From contig OX597817.1 in NCBI GenBank assembly GCA_951406725.2, positions 125,302,001-125,366,000 on the forward strand: DNA of 64,000 nt, in the 5' to 3' direction. The notes beneath the pieces are model-generated. The model saw nothing but the letters and a program-made list of their open reading frames with translations, searched no databases and was not told the origin of the DNA. Every line of letters begins with the position of its first letter. The stretch's first letter is position 1. This document shows positions 42,785 to 60,211 of the stretch, in pieces. The translations under genes were made by a program, and so were the position numbers. The DNA comes from Octopus vulgaris. Lineage: Eukaryota.

Positions 42785-43283
42785 TACAGAGCAAAAAATT
42801 GGTACGACCGTAAACCCAAAGGCATCATCAAAAATGATAATGCAAAGATCCTGTGGGATTTTACGATTCAGTGCAGCCATGAGATAGGAAGCCAGACATA
42901 GTCTTTATTAAGAAAGAAAGCAAACTATGCTGGATCATAGATATAGCATGCGCAGATGACAACAAGATAGTGATAAGGAAGAAAGAAAAGTCGATAGATA
43001 TGACAGGTTAGCTTGGGAGGTTAAGAAGTTGTATCGCTGAAAAAGGTGGTAGTAGTACCAATAATTATCAGAGCCCTGGGAACAGTGAATAAAAGTCTTG
43101 AGAAGTAAATGGAACAAATAGGGGCTGCAATAAGGGTGGAGCACTTGCAGAAAACAGCACTGCTTGGAACTGCTTGAATACACTGGAAGGTACTTGAAAA
43201 ATAAGGGGTTGTTACCTTAGTTCACAGGTAGTGAACAGCTGACACCATAGTACATCTCCAGAGTTAGAAGCTGTGCAAAGGCA
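42783..43283 (+). mobile_element. 5'-truncated R4/Dong-like retrotransposon (RLE domain plus 3' UTR) inside (AAT)n
   Basis: WYDRKP..NDNAKILWDFTIQC..KPDIV..IIDIAC..KVDRYD.LAWEVKKL..VVPIII.ALG..LQKTALLGTA; (AAT)n on both flanks. Confidence 0.85.
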
Positions 43284-46972: not shown

Positions 46973-46989
46973 TTTTTTTTTTTTTTTTT

Positions 46990-49900
46990 CTTCTTCTTTC
47001 AAATTTGCTTCCATTTCTTGCCGAGTGTCTTCCCGACTCCTAGGACAAAGAAACTCATAGTATACATTGGTAGGCCATTAAACTGAACTCAATAGTTCGT
47101 TCATTTCTTTTTTTGAAGTTAAATTAAAATACATGGGTAGTAATAGTTCTCACATCGACAATGCTCTTCTCAATACGTGTGATGTACCAGTTAAGACAAT
47201 CTTTTGCACTTCTTGCAGGGATGGTAAGCCAGGGATCATTCTCATATAATTTTCGGTTCCCTTCTTGATCATTCCTAGTGCCCCTACGATCACTGGTATT
47301 GTAACCGCCTTGAGATGCCACATTTTCCCAATTTCAATGAGCAGGTCTTTATATTTTCTGAGCTTGTCAAACTCTTTCGCCGAGATATTATGATCACAGG
47401 GGATGCTCATGTCGATCAATAAGCAAACTTTATTGTTTTGGTCTTTCACAACAATATCTGGTTTATTGGCTTTGATGGTTCGGTCTGTATGTACTGGGAA
47501 GTCCCACAGAATCGTTACATTTTCTCCTTCAGTTACAGCTTCAGGGTGATTATACCACTTGTCAGCAGTTTTGATATTGTAATGCCGACTTAGTAGCCAG
47601 TGTAGATATTGACCAACTCTGTCATGTCTTAATTTATACTCCACTGGTGCTAAGACTTTACATCCAGAGATTAGGTGGTCCACTGTTTCAATCATGTTGT
47701 TGCAGAATCGGCATTTTGGGTCTGCTCCATTTTTCATCACATTGGCCTGGTAGTTCCGGGTTAATAGGCTTTGATCTTGAGCAGCCATGATGAAACCTTC
47801 GCTCTCTGCTTTTAGCCCTGAGCTCCGTAGCCACTGATGGGTTTGCTTCTGGTCAACATCAGCTTGTCTCTCGTGATTTTCCACGAGCTTTAGCATCCAG
47901 TCATTCGTTATTTCAAGATATTTGGCGAGTCCAATTGTGGTTGTTTTGTAAGGTAGTTCAAATTGGATCAGGCCTCGACCTCCTTGGGCTCTGGGAAGGT
48001 AAAGGCGATCTACGTCTGCCTTTGGGTGGTGCATCCTATTACAACTCAGCAGCTTGCGTATTTTCCCATCTATATTCTTTACTTCACTCATATTCCAGTT
48101 CAACATATTGTAGCTATAAGTAACAACTGGAACTGCTAAGGAATTTATAGCTAACACCTTGTTACGTGCATTTAGTTCAAATTTCAGGACTGCACGAACT
48201 CTCCTATAACATTCCTTCCTGATCCTCTCTTTCATGCTTGCATGCTGAATACCAGAGCCTTCATTTATCCCTAAATATTCGTATGTTTGTTCTTGCTCAA
48301 GCTCTCTTATGACTGTGTCAACATCTAACACGACTGAGTTTGTGGTCTTCACTTTCCCTTTCTGGAAAGTGGCCTTGGCACACTTCTCAAGCCCAAACTT
48401 CATCCCGATGTCATCGCTGAATGCTTTCACAGTGGGCAATAGGCCTTCAAGTTCATTATCATCTTTACTATAGAGTTTTAAGTCATCCATATAAAATAGA
48501 TGGCTTATTTTATTATTGGCAATTTTATACCCATACCCTGTTCTGTTTAATTCACTTGTAAGGGGTATTAGGGCTATGCAGAATATTAAAGGTGAAAGTG
48601 AGTCACCTTGAAAAATTCCACAGTTGATGTTTATATTTTCTGAGGCAAGTACTCCATTAGAGTGGTATAATTGGAGATTCGTATTCCACAACGACATATT
48701 GTGCTTCAGGAAGCTTGAAATCACAGGGGAAATTTTGAAGATGTCCAGCGATCTCAAGATCCATGGATGCGGTATACTGTCGAAGGCCTTTTTATAGTCA
48801 ATCCATGCGGAGCTGAGATTTCTGCACTTGTTGTGACAGTTCTCAAGGATCATACGATTAATTAGCAGTTGATCTTTACATTCATATGAGCCTTGGCGGC
48901 ACCCTTTTTGTTCAATGGGGAAAATATCGTTCTTCTCCATGAATGCATATGTTTTCTCCGCCAGGATAGATGTTAGGATTTTATACGTGGTGGATAGACA
49001 GGTTATAGGCCGATAGTTTTTTTGAAGGTTGGTTTCGTTATTCTTTGGGAGGAGGTAAGTAATACCACTTGCTAACCATTCAGGTGTTTTCTTTGGGTCT
49101 CTCATAATTCCATTGAGCATCTGAACTAGCTTACCGTGTGCGCATGGAAGCGATGCGAGCCAGAAATTCAGCACCCTATCTTTACCGGGTGATTTCCAAT
49201 TATGGGCCTTCGTGAGTGCCTTTCTTAGGTCTGCTATTGTGATGTCTTCCCATGTTTGTTGGAAATTTTGGTAGGATCCTTCAGTTTGTATAATCCAGTC
49301 TGCATTTATGTTGTACGTCTTCTTGTCACTCCAAATCCTTTTCCAAAAGTTTTGAACTTCTTCCATGGGAGGTGGGGTCTTTAACGGTTACTTTCTCCTT
49401 CCCTATTTCTCTGTAGAATTTTTTGGCATTAGATGTGAACAGCTTATTTTGCATGTAAAACTTGTTTCTCTTCTTAAATCTTCGTATTCTTTGGGCTTTA
49501 GCTTGGACTTTTTGTTTCAGCGTTTCTTTTATTGATATCAGTTCTTCTCTTGGTGGGGGTCCAAATTTTCTCTTCATCTTTCTTCCTGTTCTGGATCTTA
49601 CATCATTTCCACATATTAGTTAATTTAATATTGATATTCCCCTCTCATAAATTCAATCTCTGTTTCAATTTTACTTCTCCAGGTTTGATTTCTTCCCAGG
49701 TTTGGTTTTCTTTGTTTTTTCGGGGGCATAGAGCTGGTTTCAATTGCCCTAGCAGAAGTGTAAATAGTTTAATTTAACTCAGTAAAATCAGGTTTTAATT
49801 CTTGTATTATTTCATTTGTTACATAGTTGCCAATTTGGATTTGTTTTTTATTTTGGTTTGTATTTGAGAGTTTATGAAGTGGTTCTCTATCATTCATACT

Positions 49901-50735
49901 TGTATGTCTTACAACTTCAAGCGTATTCAGGATTTTCTGCCTCATTTCTGCCATAGACTCTCTGTGTTCTTCAGCAAATGCGAGATCTTCAGTTACTGTT
50001 GTTTTATCATTTTCCTGGCTATCTTTAACAGGTTCAGTAGAATTTCTTGTATCTTCAGGCCTTTGCGTACTTTGGTCAGATGGCAGTCTTTCAATTAAGT
50101 CTCGTGGTGGGCTATACTGTTCATCTTATTCTTCATTTCCTTTGTATCTTATATTTATGTCATTTTCAGTTGCGTGCTTGATCGCGTTTATTTCACTGTC
50201 TGTGAGTCTGTTATTTCTAAGGATATCCCTCCTCACATTTGCCAATTTATTCTCGTCCAAATAGGGCCTACTGTCTTGATTCCGTGTTCTCCATATACTG
50301 TAAGAGTTTGCGGTGTGTCTCTCTTGAGATGGCCTACCTAATGCATAGTAATAAGCATATATTAATTCTTTATACTCTTCTCGGGTCCATTTGTTCCGCT
50401 TACATTTTTTTTCTGTGGTGGTTGTGGTGGTGAACTTGGAGGGCAAGAGTTGGGGAATTTCCCGTTCAAGTGACCATCCATGTCCGTATTCGGAGAAGAG
50501 TTTGTGCCAATTGATGACTTTTCGATCCCAGGCTGGCTCTTCCCTGGGGGACGCGCTTCCAGATTAACCATAGGACAAGCGATTTGGTATACTGATTTAG
50601 TTTTCCTTTTAGTTTCCAAAAACATTTTGGTGCTACGATAATGTTATCATTTTTGAGCTTTGATTGGCTCGTGGTGAGACGGCCATCATTGCCATTACAA
50701 TTATAATCGTACCATTATAGCAGCCGTAGTCGGCT
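46990..50735 (-). mobile_element. R4/Dong-clade non-LTR retrotransposon, near full length, inserted in (TAA)n
   Basis: N-terminal RNKWTREE..LANVRRDIL domain (50126..50446), pieces 49769..49954 and 49326..49577, RT-RLE ORF 47150..49366, 3' UTR ending (GAA)n-polyA-(TAA)n; the 5' flank is also TAA/TGA-rich. Confidence 0.93.
47150..49366 (-). pseudogene. RT + CCHC + restriction-like endonuclease ORF (frameshift-separated C-terminal part of the single Dong ORF)
   Basis: WKSPGKD, YRPITCL, IDYKKAFDS, GIFQGDSLSP, YMDD, YLG, CRFC..HLISGC, RHD, KPDIVV..IDMS..KLRKY; upstream ORF pieces are in other frames. Confidence 0.9.
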
Positions 50736-51165
50736 TATTATTGTTATTATCATCACCATTATTATCACTATTATCATTATCACCACTATTACTATCATCA
50801 TTATCATCATCACCATCACCATCATCATCATCATCATCAATGATATTGTTTTATGTGTAGTCACAGCAGTATCTTATTATTGTTATTTTTGCTTTTTATC
50901 ATTATCACCATCACAGTAGTGTCTGTTTGTCTCGTTGGCTGGCTGGGTGGTTGGCTGGCTGACTGTCTTCAACACCAGAATTCTTGCCTGTCAAATAATA
51001 CTTTCATATTTGGTTAACATCTAAAGCGCCGAGGTGAGGTTTGTGTTGACTGAACTCTGTGTGTGTGTGTGTGTGTGTAGATAGATAGATAGATTATCAG
51101 CACTATTACTATCATTATTATCATCATCACCATCATCACCATCACCATCAGTGATTTTTTTTTCC

Positions 51166-51220
<55 letters not shown>

Positions 51221-51695
51221 GAGTGAGCAAGCAGAGCATGCCATCAAAGTGACACTGGGGTAAAATATACGAAGCCCAGTATACCCATCATGACTACCCG
51301 TCTGATAAGGGTACACCAGGCACATGCATCACAACCATATGTGCGCGACATGGTGATCTCATATCAAGATAAACAGCACATGACCTTGCAGGTGGGGCCC
51401 ACTTAGAATTTTCTTCAGGTTGAGTAGCCCATCCCGCTCAAACGGTCCCTGAATAAGGGTTGTTTAAGGATCTTGAAAGAACCACCCATGTTTCCAGAGG
51501 TGAACTATTCAAACCCCAAAGAATCCCTCTCAACACATGGCTATGATGCTCCCCCACTACTTCTGCTCGTGATCAGAGATGCACATATCGTCAGCCACTA
51601 AGGGACATGCTCAACTGGTTAAGGTCAAACAACTGACAAGCAAAAATGTGGTATTGAGCAGAATATTTGCTGTAGCCCATCTTTTATACCAAGAC
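51221..51695 (-). mobile_element. (AAT)n-embedded non-coding retroposon (family E), 5'-truncated
   Basis: Reverse complement of 53536-54089 lacking its first ~80 nt; (TTA)n on both flanks. Confidence 0.85.
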
Positions 51696-51741
<46 letters not shown>

Positions 51742-52014
51742 GTTATTATTATTATAAACAATAAGGAGAGTATGATGCAATTTGTAATAAATAGAGATTG
51801 ATTCTGTTTATTGAATTGAACAAATTGAACAATAATATTTTGACAGATTGTCTGTCTTCCCCAGGTTCAAAATGTAAAATGAAAAAAGATGCAGATATAC
51901 AGAAATTAAATATATGAACAGGAATATCCTGCATTTCATTTTAGACAATTTAATAGAGTCTCTGTTAATTACAAATTGCTTTGCACTCTTCATATCATTT
52001 ATTTACCATTGTGA

Positions 52015-52058
<44 letters not shown>

Positions 52059-52189
52059 CATCATCATCATCATCATCATCATCATTATTACTATTATTAT
52101 TATTATCATTATTATTATTATTATAGTTGTTGTTGTTGTTTTTATCATTATTAGTAATGATGATAATAATAATTATAATATTGATAATA

Positions 52190-52360
52190 TGCAAGGCCAT
52201 ACACTGTTTATCTTGATATGAGATCACCATGTCACATACATAAAGTTGTGATGCATATACCTGGTGTACACTTATCAGACAGGTAGTCATGACTGGGTAT
52301 AATGGGCTTTGTATATTTTACCCCAGTGTCACTTTGATGGCATGCAATGCTCTCTCACTC
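52190..52360 (+). mobile_element. Family E, strongly 5'-truncated
   Basis: Only the last ~170 nt, ending ctctctcactc(AAT)n. Confidence 0.82.
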
Positions 52361-52418
<58 letters not shown>

Positions 52419-52425
52419 GTGATAA

Positions 52426-52465
<40 letters not shown>

Positions 52466-52868
52466 CCTTTCTCCAATAGGCACAAGGCCTGAAATTGTAA
52501 GGGAGTTGGCTAATCGATTACATTGACCCCAGTGCATAACTGGTACTCACTTTATCAAACTTGAAAGGATGAAAGGCAAAGATAACCTCGGCAGAATTTG
52601 GAGTCAGGACGTATTGACGGGTGAAATATCGCTAAGCATTTTGTCCAACATGTTAATGATCTTGCCAGCTCGCTGTACTAATAATGATAATAACAATAAG
52701 CCATACTATCATAAGCTCAAGGTCTGAAATTTTGGATTGTGGAGTTAGACAATTACATTGATCCCCAGTGCTCAACTGGTGCTTATATTATTGACCATGG
52801 CAGAGGTTGAACTCAGAAACGTAAAGACAGCCAAAATGCCACTAAGCATTCTACCAGCTCAGCACCTT
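52466..52868 (-). mobile_element. Two SINE family C copies
   Basis: 52466-52675 (tail ggccttgtgcctattggagaaaggattatt) and 52700-52868. Confidence 0.75.
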
Positions 52869-52876
52869 AATAACGA

Positions 52877-52954
<78 letters not shown>

Positions 52955-52955
<1 letters not shown>

Positions 52956-53434
52956 CATCATCATCATCATCATTTAGCATCCGCTTTCCATGCTAGCATG
53001 GGTTGGACTGTTCAACTGGGGTCTATGAAGCCAGAAGGCTGCATCAGGCCCAGTCTGATCTGGCAGTGTTTCTATGGCTGGATGCCCTTCCTAATGCCAA
53101 CCACTCCGTGAGTGTAGTGGGTGCTTTTTACGTGCCACCTGCACAGGTGCCAGATGGAGCTGGCAAACGGCCATGGACGGATGGTGCTTTTTACGTGCCA
53201 CCGGCACGGGGGCCAGGCGAGGCTGGCAACGGCCATGATCGGATGGTGCTTTTTACATGCCACCGGCATGGGGGCCAGGCGAGGCTGGCAACGGCCACAA
53301 TCGGATGGTGCTTTTTACGTGCCACCGGCACGGGGGCCAGCCGAGACTGGCAACGGCCATGAACGGATGGTGCTACGTGCCACCGGCACGGGGGCCAGGC
53401 GAGGCTGGCAACGGCCACAAACGGATGGTGCTTT

Positions 53435-53436
<2 letters not shown>
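52955..53436 (-). mobile_element. RTE 3' UTR fragment with five ~62 bp GC-rich tandem units
   Basis: Homologous to 1523-1900; unit starts at 53120, 53183, 53245, 53307, 53369 and 53427. Confidence 0.85.
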
Positions 53437-53514
<78 letters not shown>

Positions 53515-53535
53515 GATAATAATAATAATAATAAT

Positions 53536-54089
53536 GCCCTGATGCAGTACCAGGCAGTGGCTCTCATGGCTTCTGATCTTAACTGATTAGAAGTGCTATC
53601 ATGTACATTGTTTTTACTTGGTAAAAAAGATGGGCTACAGCAAATATTCTGCTCAATACCACAGATTTGCTTGTCAGTTGTTTGACCGTAACCAGTTGAG
53701 CATGTCCCTTACAGGCTGACGATATGTGCATCTCCGATCACGAGCAGAAGTAGTGGGGGAGCATCATAGCCATGTGTTGAGAGGGATTCTTTGGGGTTTG
53801 AATAATTCACCTCTGGAAACATGGGTGTTTCATTCAACATCCTTAAACAACCCTTATTCAGGGACCTTTTGAGCAGGATGGGTTACTCGACCTGAAGAAA
53901 ATTCTAAGTGGGCCCCACCTGCAAGGTCATATGCTGTTTATCTTGATATGAGATCACCATGTCGTGCATATATGGTTGTGATGCATGTGCCTAGTGTACC
54001 CTTATCAGACAGTTAGTCATGATGGGTATACTGGGCTTCGTATATTTTACCCCAGTGTCACTTTGATGGCATGCACTGCTCTCTCACTC
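53536..54089 (+). mobile_element. Family E, longest copy (~555 bp)
   Basis: (AAT)n-gccctgatgcag...ctctctcactc-(AAT)n; multiple strong hairpins; no convincing ORF or A/B boxes. Confidence 0.87.
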
Positions 54090-54148
<59 letters not shown>

Positions 54149-54343
54149 GAATAATAATACTAACGCTTCTGGTTTTAGGACTGCCAACAATTTTGAGGTA
54201 AAAATTTCAGTTAATACCATCAAAGCCAGAACTTGAGCAGTGCTTTATTTTACCTACCCTTGAGGGATGACAAAATAATTTTGATAGACATTATTTACAT
54301 TATCTAAAATTTACGAATATTTATCCTCATCTTGTTTGTTGTT

Positions 54344-54389
54344 AACACAATGTTTCGGCTGATATACCCTCCAGCCTTCATCAGGTGTC
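54344..54389 (-). ncRNA. Minimal type I hammerhead in a PLE pLTR fragment (54285-54393)
   Basis: GACAC-CUGAUGA-aGGCUG-gaggguauau-CAGCC-GAAA-CA-U-U-GUGUU; stem I GACAC/GUGUU; ACAU is probably a CpG-decayed ACGU palindrome. Confidence 0.7.
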
Positions 54390-54394
54390 TTGGT

Positions 54395-56110
54395 ATGAAA
54401 TCTGGTCAAAAGGAATGTTTATATTTGATTGCTGAATGGAGAAAATTACACTCCCAGACCCAAAACCTGTGCATCAATGGTCTCACTATCTCTCCTGTAT
54501 CACACAAAGAATGCTACATGTACCTAGGCTTTGATGAAAACAAATCATCTGAAGATAGTGTGAATAAAGATAGTGTTATGTGAGAATATTATGCCAGACT
54601 TAGAAAAATATGGCACTCAGAACTCTTCTCTTACAACAAGACAATTCTACACTGTAGAAGAGATCCACTCCATAAGAAATTGACATCAACTAGAAATCTC
54701 CACAGAAATAGTGATTTCAACTGGCTCTACCTAAGAAGTGATAAAGGAGGTAGTGGCTTGAGATCACAGCAGGCAGTCTTTGAATGTCATATAGTCTTTC
54801 TCTTGATAAATAAAAGCAGCAAAAATATATACATTAACTTAGTGTTGTAAAGTGAAGAAAACAATATACCATGACCTCTCATACAACCCCAAAACAGTTG
54901 GACTAACATGCCTCAAAGAAGAGCTGGATGTGAAATGTTCAGAATACCAAAAAAAAAAAAAAAAAAGACCATGCATGGGTATGTTTCCCAAAGACTTGAA
55001 GAAAACAGTAATAATGACTTGAAGCAAAGCGTCTCTTAGACTCATGACCACTATATGACATCCCACTTCAAAGGCTATACTCTTGCAACTCATGAACAGG
55101 AGATTGCAACTAAATACCTGATCAACAAAAGAGACAGTGAAGCTCTTGGAGCTTCAAGATACAACTGAAAATGTAGATTATGACATATTTCTGTGGAAGA
55201 CATCACACAATTGACAAGCAACAGCCCAAAAATGTCATCAAGATACTATCACCCAGTGTGACATGATGTTGCAAAAGCAATATACATTGTCATCCAGAAA
55301 AAAAAAACCGCCTTGGACTAAAAATAGAGAATTCCCTTGTTATTGAATATGTGCAAACATAAACACAGGGTATATTGGTGGAAAATTCCCATCAAAACAT
55401 CTTATTTCTTTATTGCCCACAAGGGGCTAAACATAGAGGGGACAAACAAGGACAGACAAAGGGACTAAGTCGATTACATCAACCCCAGTGCGTAACTGGT
55501 ACTTAATTTATCGACCCTGAAAGGATGAAAGGCAAAGTCGACCTCGGCGGAATTTGAACGCAGAACGTAATGGCAGACGAAATACCGCTAAGCATTTTGC
55601 CCAGCATGCTAATGATTCTGCTAGCTCACCATCTTTTCCCATCAAAACATCTATTGAGTGTAAGCACAACAAGCTGGATAGTGTTGTTTGAGACAGACAA
55701 TAAAATGTATGTAGTGCTGCAGAGGTCAGCTGTCCTGCAAGGATGTAAATGTCTCTTTGGAAATCAAAGAGAAAGAAGATAATTATAGACAACTGCTTCA
55801 AAAACTCCAGCTTTCATATCCAGGTTACAGATTTACATTTATACCAACAAAAACTGATGCACTTAGTTTTGTGAATAAATGCTTAACTGACAGTCTGGAT
55901 AAGTTTGGATTTTCAGAAAAAAAAACCCCCATCCAACTAACATGCACATTACAAATACAATCTTTAAGAGGATCAGTAAAAATATGCAAGACTTTTCCCA
56001 AGTTTAAAATTTGACATTATTTTTATGTACATTCCAATGATGAAGCTTTTGTTTTTGTTAGAAACAGTTCCTTCCTCAGAGGAAGAATTTAAATAGCTGA
56101 AAACAGAATA
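54395..56110 (+). mobile_element. Second, older R4/Dong-like RT-RLE retrotransposon relic
   Basis: CYMYLGFDEN, RLRKIWHSEL, LYLRSDKGGSGL, KTMHGY, HEQEIATKYL, HDVAKAI, KEDNYRQLL..FIP..ALSFV..GSVKICKTF; many stops and frameshifts. Confidence 0.8.
55403..55632 (-). mobile_element. SINE family C inserted into the R4-like relic
   Basis: 17 bp TSD ttcccatcaaaacatct at 55386-55402 and 55636-55652; near-identical to 12304. Confidence 0.92.
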
Positions 56111-57193
56111 GAACACACACACAAACACACATGTGCACATGTGCACATGCATGCATGCATGTGTATGTGTGTATGTGTGTGTGTGTGTAAGTGTGTGTCT
56201 GTGTGTGTAAGTGTGTGTCTGTGTGGGTGTGTTTGTGCGTGCACATGTAATGTATATGTATGACAGTTGTACCCCCATATCTCATATAGACACGGTTCAT
56301 TGACAGAAGAAACCAGTTAAGAGTAATCCACATGAGTTTGTGCATATGTGTGAGTGTGTTTTTGTGAATTTATGAGTGTACATATTCATAGGTGTAAATT
56401 TGTTTCTGCGAACTGTGTGAAATGATGTATGAGAATGCACATGTATGCTACACTCATTTCATACATTCTAATCATATTAATTGAAATGTCTATAGTTCTC
56501 TGGGGAAAATAGCTATTGTTATAGCTCTATAAAACTAAAATTCTAAATGCTTTTATAATTCATTTAATTTTCTTTTTTAAGGTAGTGAGTATGAATATGC
56601 GAAAGAAACATTTTATTAAAAGAGTTGCTTGGGAGATAAAATGACCCACAGCTATTTTACACAATTTTCCAGTAATATTAACTAATTTTCTGGAAATGTA
56701 ATATGGTTAACAATGATGTAATTTCTAATATAAACACATTTAATTGAGAGATTACATCTTACAGCTGACAGGAACTATTACAATTTGTTTCAGGTACATC
56801 TTAAAAGCTTTTGCATCAAATGTTTACAGTTCCAGTGAAGAAATGAGTTCTTATTGTTTGGTGTTGATAATACAAGAATAGATTGCATTTCTACATGAAG
56901 CATTTATAATTGCATTCAAGGCTGACCACTGGAATTTAATTTAAATTTGCAGTAACTTTGATAGAACATACTGTGATCATCCTGAAGATGATCAAAGAAA
57001 ATGTAAATAATCCTAAAATGATATAATCATGCTTAATAAATGTGCTTCAGAATGGCCTGTTTGTGACTTTTCCTTTTGCAAGATAAGGAATTGAAAAAGG
57101 TAATGTAGTTCTATATTGAAGAGATGAGGAATTATATACATTATATACATTATTTACATTTGGCAGATATTTGTCCTTATCTTGTTTGTTGTT

Positions 57194-57236
57194 AACACGT
57201 TTCGGCTGATATACCCTCCAGCCTTCATCAGGTGTC
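57194..57236 (-). ncRNA. Hammerhead core in pLTR (3 nt shorter than the 54344 copy at the cleavage site)
   Basis: GACAC-CUGAUGA-aGGCUG...CAGCC-GAAAC-GUGUU. Confidence 0.55.
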
Positions 57237-57330
57237 TTGGGGGAATTTCGAACCTGGGTTCTCATTCCTAAGGTATTTTTCGATGTTATATTTATTATTA
57301 TTATTATTATTATCATTATTATTATTCAGA

Positions 57331-57401
57331 TCACTGCCTGGAATCGAACTCGGAATCTTGGGGTTAGTAGCCCACACTTTTAACCACTACACCATATGCC
57401 C
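57331..57401 (-). promoter_or_regulatory. tRNA-like Pol III cassette (A and B boxes) inside the PLE
   Basis: GGGCATATGGTGTAGTGGTTAAAAGTGTGGGCTACTAACCCCAAGATTCCGAGTTCGATTCCAGGCAGTGA: A box TGGTGTAGTGG, anticodon-like arm GGG-CTACTAA-CCC, B box GAGTTCGATTCC. Confidence 0.75.
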
Positions 57402-57430
57402 ATGGGTAATTATGGAGTGAAATTTAGGGC

Positions 57431-57760
57431 TTATAAATCTAATATTTTAATATTTTTCCTTAATACTGGTTCCCATGTGCTATTCATATCTGCACTCGGT
57501 CTGCTTAGAAGGTTGTTGTGTCCTAGCTTATGTGCTGCTTCTTTCAGTTTTTGTATTTTCCAGTAACGTTCTCTGTCTATTATTTTAACTTCATCCCACA
57601 GGGAGAGGTTGTCTCCATTTCTCCATAAATGATCAGCTATACTCGATTTAGCAATATTTCCCCATGTCACAGCTTTGTGATGTTCCTCTGCCCTTAGTTT
57701 GAGGGGGCGGCATGTTTCGCCTTTGTATAACCTACCACAGCTGCATGGGATGGAGTACAT
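57431..57760 (-). CDS. GIY-YIG endonuclease domain of a Penelope-like element (5'-truncated)
   Basis: YSIPCSCGRLYKGETCRPLKLRAEEH..SSIADH..RKLKEA-like (QKLKEAAH). Confidence 0.85.
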   Translation of the reverse strand: MYSIPCSCGRLYKGETCRPLKLRAEEHHKAVTWGNIAKSSIADHLWRNGDNLSLWDEVKIIDRERYWKIQKLKEAAHKLGHNNLLSRPSADMNSTWEPVLRKNIKILDL

Positions 57761-57896
57761 GCAGTTTTTTGGTCATATTCTCTTCTAGTGGTCGTTTTAC
57801 CTGAAGGAGATATTTGCAAAGTGTTGTATAACTCTTGAATGCTGTCCTGATGTCATATGGGGTGCATATCTTTTGTATCTATTTGGAGTTACAAAT

Positions 57897-57943
<47 letters not shown>

Positions 57944-58001
57944 CAACAACAACATCGAAAAATACTTTAGGAATGAGAACCCAGGTTCGAAATTTCCCCA
58001 A

Positions 58002-58045
58002 GACACCTGATGAAGCCTGGAAGGTATATCAGCCGAAACATGTTA
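58002..58045 (+). ncRNA. Degenerate hammerhead core in the inverted pLTR
   Basis: GACAC-CUGAUGA-agccug...cagcc-GAAACAUGUU; stems I and II are imperfect. Confidence 0.5.
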
Positions 58046-58754
58046 TCAACAAACAAGATGAAGACATATAGCCATCAAATGTAAATAATGTAAATAATAT
58101 AAGTAATGGACATCAATAATGTTTTCCATGGACATTGCAATGAAGTGTGAAGTAGGAAATGTTTGAATTTTTTTTCTAAGGATTTTCAAACATTATTGTA
58201 ATTCTTACATTATAGAATTCTGTAACTTCTATATAAAAATCAATTCATTCAAATTTAAAGGAATGAAAAATCTTGGCAAAAAGTAACATTCAATTATTAT
58301 TTTTATAGTCAATAATGATTTTAGAGAAACAATCCCACCACAAAATTAAAACCAGATTGTATTTCTATACTGGATAGTAAACGTAGCCATCTCACTTTGA
58401 ATGCTTATAACAAACAGTATTCTGTTGTAAATAGCCTAACCAGGACTCTAATCTGGTGTTAAATCCATGATTTTAAGCAAAGCAAAAACCAATATGGAGT
58501 AATTTCCTTTTTGTTTTTTTATAAATAGTCTTGGAACACTATGAATGATCCTAGGTATTGACCTTCCAGCACTGACTAAACCAAATGAGAAAGCATGTTG
58601 GACCATTTTGCTTAGATTATTCAAATATAAATTATAACCATAATATTGTTTCCTTTTGATTGGATACAAAGATTTTACATACTAGATGAAATAGAATATG
58701 TGAACTTTCAACACTCATATCCAAAGACAGTTAACCATGTAAATGGAACCAAAT

Positions 58755-59605
58755 TATAAGATGATATCTAAAGGTTCTGGACTACTTATGTTTAATAAAA
58801 ACAATAACTTATTTAACTAAGATTTAACATCCACTCCTTTGAAATAGGCATCTTGCACAGCAATACACTGGTTCCAGTGTTCCTGCCACTTTTGGAATCC
58901 TGCCTGGAAGCTGTTTCCCATAAGTGAGTCAAGGATTTTGTGCAATTCACTCTGGATCTTGACAATGGTGTTAAAATGATGCTAAATGAGGTTAATAGGG
59001 TGGGGGCAGAAGTGATGCCATGTTGTTTTTGGCAAGAAACTCATGAGTAAGGAGAGCTTGGTGACAGGGTGCTTTGTCATCATGAAGAATCTAATTCTTC
59101 ATGCTCCACAGATTTAGTTGCTTTCTCAGGATGTTCTCCCACAAGTACTTCAAACTGTCCCAGTAGGACTCTCGATTGACAGTCAGGCCCTGGGGAATGA
59201 ATTCTCAATATCACATTTCCAGGTGTGATGCTTGTTGCAAGTCTTTCAGATTGTTCATCAACTTGCAGGGATGGTCTTCTACTTTTGAAGTGCCTGTACC
59301 ACTCTAAACATTGTGTACATCCCATTGCCTCGTCACTGTAAACTTGCTGAAGCATGCTCAGTGTCTTTATAGCAGATTTCCCAAGTTTAAAGCAAAATTT
59401 GAAGTTTGCTCTTTATTCCTGTCCATGACAAAATCACAGACTACAGCATACACATGATCACAAACACACAAATTTCATAACATGCGAAGTAAACACAGCA
59501 ATATCACTCATGACACTACCTCATGAAGGTTACTACTAAACCTCACAATACATGGAACTGTTGGGGCACTACGGAACTAGTCTAGGAACTGTTTGATACC
59601 ACCAC
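58755..59605 (-). mobile_element. Internally deleted mariner (DD34D-type) relic
   Basis: MLQQVYSDEAMGCTQCLEWYRHFKSRR.SL..DEQS.R (mariner HTH); C-terminal FQKWQEHWNQCIAVQDAYF; TIR-like ends aaaggttctggact and agtctaggaactgtttgatacc. Confidence 0.78.
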
Positions 59606-59710
59606 ATCTATTCATCTCGGTATTGAAATCGCATTGGAAACTTCAGGCCTTGTGCCTACAGAAGAAAGGATTATTATTATTAATTATTATTAATTATTAT
59701 TATTATTATT

Positions 59711-60142
59711 GAGTGAGAGAGCAGTGCATGCCATCAAAGTGACTCTGGGGTAAAACATACAAAGCCCAGTATGCCTATTATGAATACCCGTCTGATAAGG
59801 GTACACCAGGCACGTGCATCACAACCATATGTGTGAGACATGGTGATCTCATATCAAGACAAACAGCACATGACCTTGCATGTGGAGCCCAGTTAGAATT
59901 TTCTTCTGGTCAAGTAACCTATCCCGCTCTAAAGGTCCCTGAAGAAGGGTTGTTTAAGGATGTTGAATGAAACACCCATGTTTCCAGAGGTGAATTATTC
60001 AAACCCCAAAGAATCCCTCTCAACACATGGCTATGATGCTCCCCCACTACTTCTGCTCATGATCAGAGATGCACATATCGTCAGTCACTAAGGGACATTG
60101 ACAAGCAAATCTGTGGTATTGAGCAGAATATTTGCTGTAGCC

Positions 60143-60145
<3 letters not shown>
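59711..60145 (-). mobile_element. Family E, 5'-truncated with a small internal deletion
   Basis: Reverse complement of ~53630-54089; (TTA)n on both flanks. Confidence 0.85.

Positions 60146-60211
<66 letters not shown>

Follow-up and report, generated by a model that had tools for sequence, protein, structure and literature searches.

Four copies of a protein-less sequence, here called family E, lie among (AAT)n tracts in a 64,000-nt stretch of the Octopus vulgaris genome (contig OX597817.1, positions 125,302,001 to 125,366,000, forward strand; hereafter the window), and the question that they raise is which enzymes copy an RNA without coding capacity into a microsatellite. An initial annotation of the window had proposed that family E is the passenger RNA, or else a long 3' untranslated region (UTR), of an element that targets microsatellites through a restriction-like endonuclease (RLE). 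Three lines of evidence support the passenger proposal: i) family E is a discrete unit, ii) AAT repeats are its target, and iii) its integration footprints are Dong-like. We consider it likely that family E is a non-autonomous retroposon dependent on Dong elements (R4 clade) and copied into (AAT)n, with a predicted 3' hairpin that mimics the fold of the Dong 3' UTR. The initial annotation had been unable to name the driver; this still holds for the individual family, but the candidates are narrowed to the AAT-targeting Dong lineage.

A discrete retroposon with two fixed ends

All four annotated copies were recovered, at 90–97% identity to one 554-nt consensus, the numbering of which is used throughout and against which copy identities are given. 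Each of the four carries the 3' end ...ctcactc followed by (AAT)n, and AAT-type repeats flank the copies on both sides in the orientation of the element, the 5' flank of the copy at 52190 being degenerate. As had been annotated, family E possesses no open reading frame (ORF; stop-free frames in the consensus do not exceed 59 aa), no tRNA head (an ARAGORN tRNA search of the window returned none) and no terminal inverted repeats (TIRs). Its polar 5' truncation, its tail and the lack of TIRs set it apart from miniature transposable elements with inverted repeats (MITEs), which are defined by TIRs, short target site duplications and intact ends. At 554 nt, and with a fixed 3' end, it falls within the size limit of SINEBase for non-autonomous retroposons (under 700 bp).

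A search of the genome (2.80 Gb, 227 contigs) gave 4,723 candidates at first look, and 40 of them were scored. The best 30 loci all begin at nt 1–7 and stop at nt 554, and none of them runs on into further unique sequence. A full-length query favours full-length copies; when the search was repeated with a 3'-only query, the terminal 178 nt of an old copy, an ORF was reached in none of 29 other loci. Longer copies thus stop at a fixed 5' end, and no ORF for a reverse transcriptase (RT) with an RLE is encountered upstream. Among 112 copies with an intact 3' end, mostly best-hit loci, 51 start exactly at nt 1. The variable 5' truncation described in the initial annotation exists, but the 5' end is also fixed and not merely variable.

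A position-blind sample of sixty 10-kb stretches, taken at round-number positions and totalling 600 kb, gave 16 pieces by BLAST; two of these are part of a MITE, and the other 14 make up 12 insertions, five of which start at nt 23 or earlier and none of which extends into an ORF. This density corresponds to approximately 56,000 copies (Poisson 95% range 29,000–98,000, from 12 insertions in 600 kb), and family E occupies about 0.7% of the sampled DNA. Because no sampled copy enters an ORF, family E is not the 3' UTR of a long interspersed element (LINE). An ordinary LINE 3' UTR would account for 5' truncation combined with a fixed 3' end; starts at nt 1 and ORF-free extensions, in the 3'-only search as in the random sample, refute it for any abundant LINE, and we find this explanation barely credible. 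What is left of it is a version with a rare parent, which is equivalent to the internally deleted derivative considered below.

Family E is young and old at once, with linked subfamily variants. The median divergence from the consensus is 2% across 55 full-length copies, mostly best matches, and many copies differ by only 1–3%, while nine 3' ends from the 600-kb sample range from 1% to 22%. The family also occurs in contigs of sequencing runs coded as five organisms. In runs X1, X5, X16 and X19, a joint from nt 136 back to nt 1 via AAT/AT recurs; it likely marks a hot spot of template jumping or a subfamily amplified with a duplicated 5' end.

The source of the RNA bears on another explanation, namely that family E is a short interspersed element (SINE) transcribed by RNA polymerase (Pol) III, with a small-RNA head decayed beyond recognition and a Dong-derived tail. 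A length under 700 nt, the many full-length copies in the random sample and a start defined precisely at a purine, lacking the additional G-rich bases of Dong 5' ends, would suit such an element. Neither ARAGORN nor Rfam detected the tRNA, 5S or 7SL head by which SINEBase recognizes SINEs, and the Rfam search that the initial annotation had called for placed no family inside E at E-values up to 5 or 10, save for a 10.7-bit chance match. Compared with the A- and B-box consensus patterns, E contains no exact box, and candidates with two mismatches are not spaced and ordered as a promoter near the 5' end; three internal T4 runs lie at nt 76, 332 and 510. The missing boxes and the T4 runs argue against an ordinary Pol III SINE. 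Young active SINEs normally retain their boxes, which counts against a decayed one as well, and this origin appears improbable. Template-jump junctions put the start of the E RNA at AAT or AT before GCCC, and the RNA of the full-length copy in the window likely begins 2–3 nt before the first aligned nucleotide, at AT/AAT. We infer that this RNA arises by Pol II transcription or by processing, in preference to Pol III.

Target and footprints shared with Dong-like elements

The initial annotation had stated that family E is found only inside (AAT)n. This is mostly so, the exceptions being a GAT flank, an AAG flank and an internal fragment borne by a MITE. For the 12 insertions of the 600-kb sample, two of which had unreadable 5' flanks, the remaining ten 5' flanks comprise eight of AAT (two degenerate), one of GAT and one of AAG; (AAT)3 occurs within 30 nt at a background rate of 0.6%. 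Over all loci collected, (AAT)3 or more was present in 86/110 5' flanks and 106/112 3' flanks, and the 16 "other" 5' flanks are mostly duplications or deletions of family E itself. The AAT bias of 5' flanks in a position-blind sample indicates that AAT is not merely the element's own tail. In three loci (L012, L016, L019), the halves of a Penelope-type repeat lie on either side of family E, with the internal AAT tract of the repeat split; the tract predates the insertion, and AAT is the target.

Statements on published elements, here and below, are confined to the cited parts of the respective reports. TAA repeats are the target of Dong elements (PMC3812793, PMC1635306), and insertion into (TAA)n in a fixed orientation, the mark of Dong/R4 mobilization, is what family E displays. 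Many families encoding RT and RLE occupy the same AAT arrays in the same orientation as family E, and three young ones retain intact ORFs: family A (1234–1235 aa), family B (1225–1226 aa) and family C (1284–1316 aa). Family E thereby has intact, contemporary, autonomous candidate partners, and its divergence overlaps with that of families A and B. Measured against the R4-clade architecture of a single ORF with RT, a C-terminal CCHC motif and a PD-(D/E)xK RLE, the candidate driver proteins contain the Pfam domains RVT_1 and zf-RVT, and motifs were read by eye in family B; the family B protein, which has an RVT_1 domain, matched only R2 proteins in the PDB. We label A, B and C as putatively Dong-like (R4 clade) from their architecture, TAA target and copy number, compared with a survey of octopus repeats (PMC13282606), rather than from an RT tree. 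That survey reports five recently active Dong-R4 families in Octopus vulgaris and lists 51 in its supplementary repeat library (PMC13282606). Our sample covers about 15 Dong-like tails and the true 5' ends of families A, B and C; the 5' end of family F was not reached in 20 loci.

The strongest link between family E and Dong A, B and C lies in their common 5' junction phase and 5' duplications. Of 60 full-length family E junctions, 43 end ...AAAT|GCCC and 34 read exactly AATAA|ATGCCC. Full-length Dong A, B and C likewise start after ...AATAA, often with short tandem duplications of their first 20–25 nt, and short 5' duplications are present in five of the first 30 family E loci (L005, L013, L017, L018, L026). 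Family E thus carries the integration footprint of an autonomous Dong element. Tandem repeats of the first 20–25 nt reach more than ten units in full-length Dong copies (L172, L173, L293, L294, L310, L311). No hepatitis delta virus (HDV)-like or hammerhead ribozyme was found in E by a descriptor that returned none in the Dong controls either (the family A control not being a true 5' end), and Rfam placed a ribozyme neither in E nor in loci with true Dong A, B and C 5' ends.

The same footprints bear on mobilization by a LINE with an apurinic/apyrimidinic endonuclease (APE), or by a Penelope-like element, the AAT bias then stemming from annealing of the element's own tail at nicks. Microsatellite tails do occur in RTE and CR1/L2 partners, and no Dong tail was found in E at the sequence level. 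Against this stand the long 5' AAT runs in the same phase, the AATAA phase and the 5' duplications, all of which match Dong A, B and C. Family E lacks the hammerhead-plus-inverted-end architecture, and no partner tail from another clade was present among sequences ending at AAT arrays. Mobilization of this kind is, in our judgement, quite improbable.

Some Dong tails are also followed immediately downstream by a family E copy of like orientation, in 5/40 cases for family B, 6/29 for family A (three of the six added by eye) and 3/20 for family F. Dong B was considered as a specific driver by template jumping, from an initial count of ten B and one A upstream of family E. This excess was biased because a filter had dropped the poly(A) tail of family A, and the preference for B was rejected since the sampling blind to E gave the proportions above (p 0.51).

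The predicted 3' hairpin and the candidate drivers

The 3' UTRs of Dong-like elements share a fold in which a stem closed by a C-G pair leads through a 3x1 internal loop into a 6-bp stem, capped by a 5-nt loop that usually has GG. This covarying 39-nt motif of stem, internal loop and hairpin is common to at least ten Dong-like families. Across 16 rows of Dong 3' UTRs, 84% of cells are paired, compared with 62% after shuffling and 33–48% in slid controls, and double-sided changes number 48 versus 16. A covariance model built solely from Dong sequences picks Dong 3' ends out of random genome stretches.

In family E, nt 458–497 are predicted to adopt the same geometry with one extra bulged A. This is the first of three stems named in the initial annotation, all of which exist, and the A/G alternation noted there, at nt 458 (20/108 copies), preserves the pair. 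Within the 600-kb sample, both strands, a descriptor of the motif matched only Dong (5) and E (2); it matched 21 of 20,000 shuffles of E, five of them within the last 120 nt. The Dong-only covariance model found the motif in E at the right place and on the right strand in 19/24 loci, a match of approximately p 0.01 when scaled by hand to one 554-nt strand with rough calibration. The internal loop and hairpin loop of E resemble those of Dong families F, G and L. The earlier statement that the 3' end of family E is unlike Dong 3' ends stands for the sequence (families A, B and C, and 13 tails) and is tempered by a weak match in predicted RNA structure, which we regard as suggestive.

Family E had also been described as structured. 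Folding energy bears this out, since a full-length copy folds as a whole with z = -4.35 (0/100 shuffles as good), and in five of five windows folding is better for the sense strand than for its antisense, by a slight margin in two; evolutionary support for the structure is thin. A compensatory change from G250-C316 to A-U is fixed in an 8-copy subfamily and is accompanied by four pair-keeping changes and one pair-breaking change.

Several observations weigh against Dong dependence through a shared fold. In primary sequence, E is unlike Dong A, B and C by blastn, and its last 120 nt show no similarity to 13 Dong tails (shuffle p 0.12 or higher), so that recognition of a partner-like 3' end by sequence homology is not seen. 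At the other end, full-length Dong elements begin with G or AG and family E with AT, and no Dong family is preferentially adjacent to it. The motif itself carries reservations. The Dong pair counts lean toward the fold because the alignment was anchored on structure by hand, and the one-base bulge was permitted in the descriptor after E had been seen; the descriptor leaves out Dong B, C, D, I and J and fits only 42/91 family E 3' ends. With the covariance model, E scores 10–12 bits (E-values 1.4–5.3 in 85 kb), compared with 22–38 bits for Dong copies, and in the 600-kb search with this model no family E copy reached an E-value of 10. The distance of the motif from the 3' end is about 80 nt in E and 52–62 nt in Dong. 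Covariation inside E is likewise thin, with position 250-316 as the one compensatory pair; pairs are kept by 7/14 shared variants versus 105/390 rare ones (p 0.07), and in runs X5 and X19 250A is accompanied by 316A, which breaks the pair, in about half of the depth. Selection on family E's own fold is weakly supported because of these few compensatory changes, the p value of 0.07 and the 250A/316A pairs.

A further explanation keeps the same enzymology but derives family E by deletion from one particular Dong family, extinct or unsampled: it would be a short internally deleted element (SIDE), or a bipartite form, still bearing the UTRs of this cognate partner. R2 SIDEs arise by internal deletion (PMC3414825), and only some 15 tails and three true 5' ends have been sampled against the 51 Dong-R4 families listed (PMC13282606). 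Family F, with its 5' end beyond the reach of 20 loci and loops resembling those of E, as also in G and L, would leave room for such a parent. Against a SIDE, E shows no similarity to the 5' or 3' UTRs of Dong A, B and C; in four deep runs, only 0–1% of contigs covering the last 155 nt continue unlike E, and the best-supported loose ends (best 24 of 910) are E variants and AAT tails. Moreover, as E is young, its cognate driver would be expected to be young and abundant. We regard descent from a single Dong family as rather unlikely. Family F was tried as the parent of E and set aside (tail alignment p 0.12).

Returning to Dong dependence in trans, the current driver would be A, B or C, the young families whose ORFs are intact, or several of these together. 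If a single one is to be named, Dong A is our best guess, a tentative one held at somewhat less than even confidence and made because of its overlap in age and its hairpin shape. A mechanism can then be proposed. Source copies would yield a unit-length RNA beginning (A)ATGCCC, more probably through Pol II transcription or processing of read-through transcripts than from a Pol III internal promoter. Nucleotides 458–497 are predicted to fold as the Dong 3' UTR does (stem, 3x1 loop, 6-bp stem, 5-nt loop), and a Dong protein would bind this hairpin in trans. Nicking of the target, such as a microsatellite, followed by target-primed reverse transcription is established for RLE elements. For E, the endonuclease would accordingly nick the microsatellite, and copying by the RT would begin at the 3' end of the RNA. 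At its 5' end, E is joined after ...AATAA, and template jumps would leave the short duplications that occur there in E and in Dong A, B and C alike; the footprint is present, and the cause is our proposal. A bolder version, which we entertain without favouring it, holds that E is a sequence-orphan parasite of several Dong families by shape alone. The 40-nt hairpin, common to at least ten octopus Dong 3' UTRs in fold and not in sequence, would then be the recognition code of the R4/Dong RT-RLE protein, and any RNA bearing it would be pasted into (AAT)n.

Known systems and neighbouring repeats

EhLINE1 of Entamoeba histolytica belongs to the R4 clade. Its partner EhSINE1 resembles E in being 500–600 nt long, non-coding and without an identified small-RNA precursor or canonical Pol III boxes, and EhLINE1 encodes a restriction-like endonuclease (PMC2996970, PMC1635306). 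As described there, EhSINE1 differs from E in that a 3' sequence of about 70 bp is common to it and its LINE and in having no repeat target. Unlike EhSINE1, E shares only a predicted fold with its candidate partners, targets (AAT)n, resides in an animal host and numbers tens of thousands of copies. The R2 SIDEs and R2/R1 hybrid SIDEs of Drosophila resemble E as ORF-less, non-Pol III passengers of site-specific machinery of non-long terminal repeat retrotransposons, with template jumps; unlike E, R2 SIDEs carry a recognizable 5' ribozyme and the parental 3' UTR, are confined to rDNA and are rare (PMC3414825). In E, by comparison, no homology to a parent was seen among Dong A, B, C and 13 tails, and no HDV-like ribozyme was detected. 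EhSINE1 and the R2 SIDEs are the closest known systems to E.

Among Dong elements (PMC3812793, PMC1635306, PMC3774820), the Dong-like families of this genome share with E the (TAA/AAT)n target, the orientation, the 5' junction phase and the 5' duplications. Bombyx Dong differs in its tested HDV-like ribozyme, which self-cleaves at the 5' junction (PMC3774820) and of which no counterpart was detected in E. Pol III SINEs, including the tRNA-derived and Ceph/CORE SINEs of octopus, are like E short, high-copy and non-autonomous, with a simple-repeat tail (PMC3531059, PMC5786205); E departs from them in having no tRNA, 5S or 7SL head and no A and B boxes, the comparison covering heads and boxes. 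The LINE-derived regions given in SINEBase are Bov-B, CR1 and L2, not R4 (PMC3531059), and the clades named for ORF-less bipartite passengers in the cited account are RTE, Ingi, Vingi and R2 only (Kojima 2018, PMC5786205).

The RLE-dependent short retroposons that we found in print are the EhSINEs and the R2 SIDEs. A Dong passenger at ~56,000 copies would, if our interpretation is true, add an animal R4/Dong lineage and a microsatellite target to the known passengers. Were recognition by shape alone to hold, E would represent a third route to a SINE-like element, neither headed by a Pol III gene nor deleted internally from its driver, and would offer a microsatellite-targeting enzyme a naturally occurring template in trans. 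The covarying Dong 3' UTR motif makes the choice of RNA by R4-clade proteins directly testable. The result is also relevant to how octopus repeats are annotated and to AAT microsatellite markers, which will often be flanked by such repeats. Most recently active octopus SINE families are unclassified (PMC13282606). In the literature searched, repeat databases being outside its scope, we found no description of family E or of a Dong-dependent SINE; E may be listed in Repbase, Dfam or the PMC13282606 library as an unclassified SINE or as Dong-R4.

The features of the window that bear on family E are collected in Table 1. The family A copy has a broken ORF, the longest piece of which (745 aa, 47153–49387) contains Pfam RVT_1; it begins inside the AAT tail of the family E copy at 51221 and lies in the same tract and orientation.

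Table 1. Family E copies, their (AAT)n tracts and Dong-like features in the window.
Feature	Position	Strand	Basis or remark
Family E, full-length copy, nt 1–554, 96% identity	53536..54089	+	consensus alignment
Family E, 5'-truncated copy, nt 80–554, 97% identity	51221..51695	-	consensus alignment
Family E, older 5'-truncated copy, nt 385–554, 90% identity	52190..52360	+	consensus alignment
Family E, 5'-truncated copy, nt 95–554, internal 25-nt deletion, 90% identity	59711..60145	-	consensus alignment
(AAT)n target tract, 5' of full-length copy 53536	53436..53535	+	
(AAT)n tract, 3' of full-length copy 53536	54090..54163	+	
(AAT)n tract, 3' of copy 51221, common to adjoining Dong-like element	51171..51220	-	
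(AAT)n tract, 5' of copy 51221	51696..51755	-	
(AAT)n tract, 3' of copy 52190	52361..52465	+	
(AAT)n tract, 3' of copy 59711	59670..59710	-	
(AAT)n tract, 5' of copy 59711	60144..60211	-	
Predicted Dong-type 3' recognition motif, loop mutated in this copy	53993..54032	+	homology to scored copy
Same predicted motif, intact	51278..51317	-	Dong-only covariance model, 11.0 bits, E-value 2.1 for the window
Dong-like RT-RLE element, family A, truncated in 5' UTR; candidate driver family	46973..51170	-	
Dong A 3' UTR motif	47014..47052	-	32.1 bits
Family F (Dong-like) 3' fragment	43010..43280	+	motif at 43208–43246, 38.5 bits

A degenerate Dong-like element at 54393–55950 (+), interrupted by a SINE at 55400–55635, was considered as a driver and rejected: it belongs to an older family with a different end, followed by (ATAC)/(AC) repeats and not AAT. 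Outside the window, the 5' UTRs of Dong C and A (L293, L311) share GCGGCTGGACGTG and carry GGACG about 27–32 nt from the start, presumably akin to a downstream promoter element; the common sequence and the spacing suggest that Dong A and C may use internal Pol II promoters rather than ribozymes. At L194:1198-1301 (-), a near full-length retrocopy of U6 small nuclear RNA (Rfam, 104 bits) directly follows the (AAT)n tail of a Dong B element and is followed by a tRNA-SINE; it may stem from template jumping by Dong or have inserted into the tract.

The MITE that carries a piece of family E is an older element of ~520 bp, which we take to be Harbinger-like, with a TIR beginning CACTGTGTAAC and apparent TAA/TTA duplications (L058:rc 1830-2330, L099:8045-9050, L262-L280). 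The piece, nt 101–270, is present in 19/19 loci, and over it a consensus of four MITE copies has 95% identity to E. Because the fragment ends cut predicted E helices (226–241 with 434–449), it is likely the MITE that captured E. An older subfamily linking E to a LINE was sought through the diagnostic pattern of L101, which matched only itself and L314, and was abandoned. L314/L315 (G000:C28:2181000-2181400, -) is a chimera in which a tRNA/CORE-like SINE, with head and body, passes at a short microhomology into E nt 380–554 plus (AAT)n; it is the only one of 40 scored matches to span both parts, and no family of such chimeras was found.

Elsewhere in the window, two copies of a Penelope-type repeat (57131–57900 and 57894–58107), with a tRNA-like head, an (AAT)n stretch inside and a core that looks hammerhead-like by eye, form an inverted pair around a GIY-YIG-like fragment. 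A degenerate Tc1/mariner transposase fragment lies at 58780–59600 (-), and tandem repeats of 62–68 bp occur within a SINE-like element of another family at 53120–53437 and 1691–1901.

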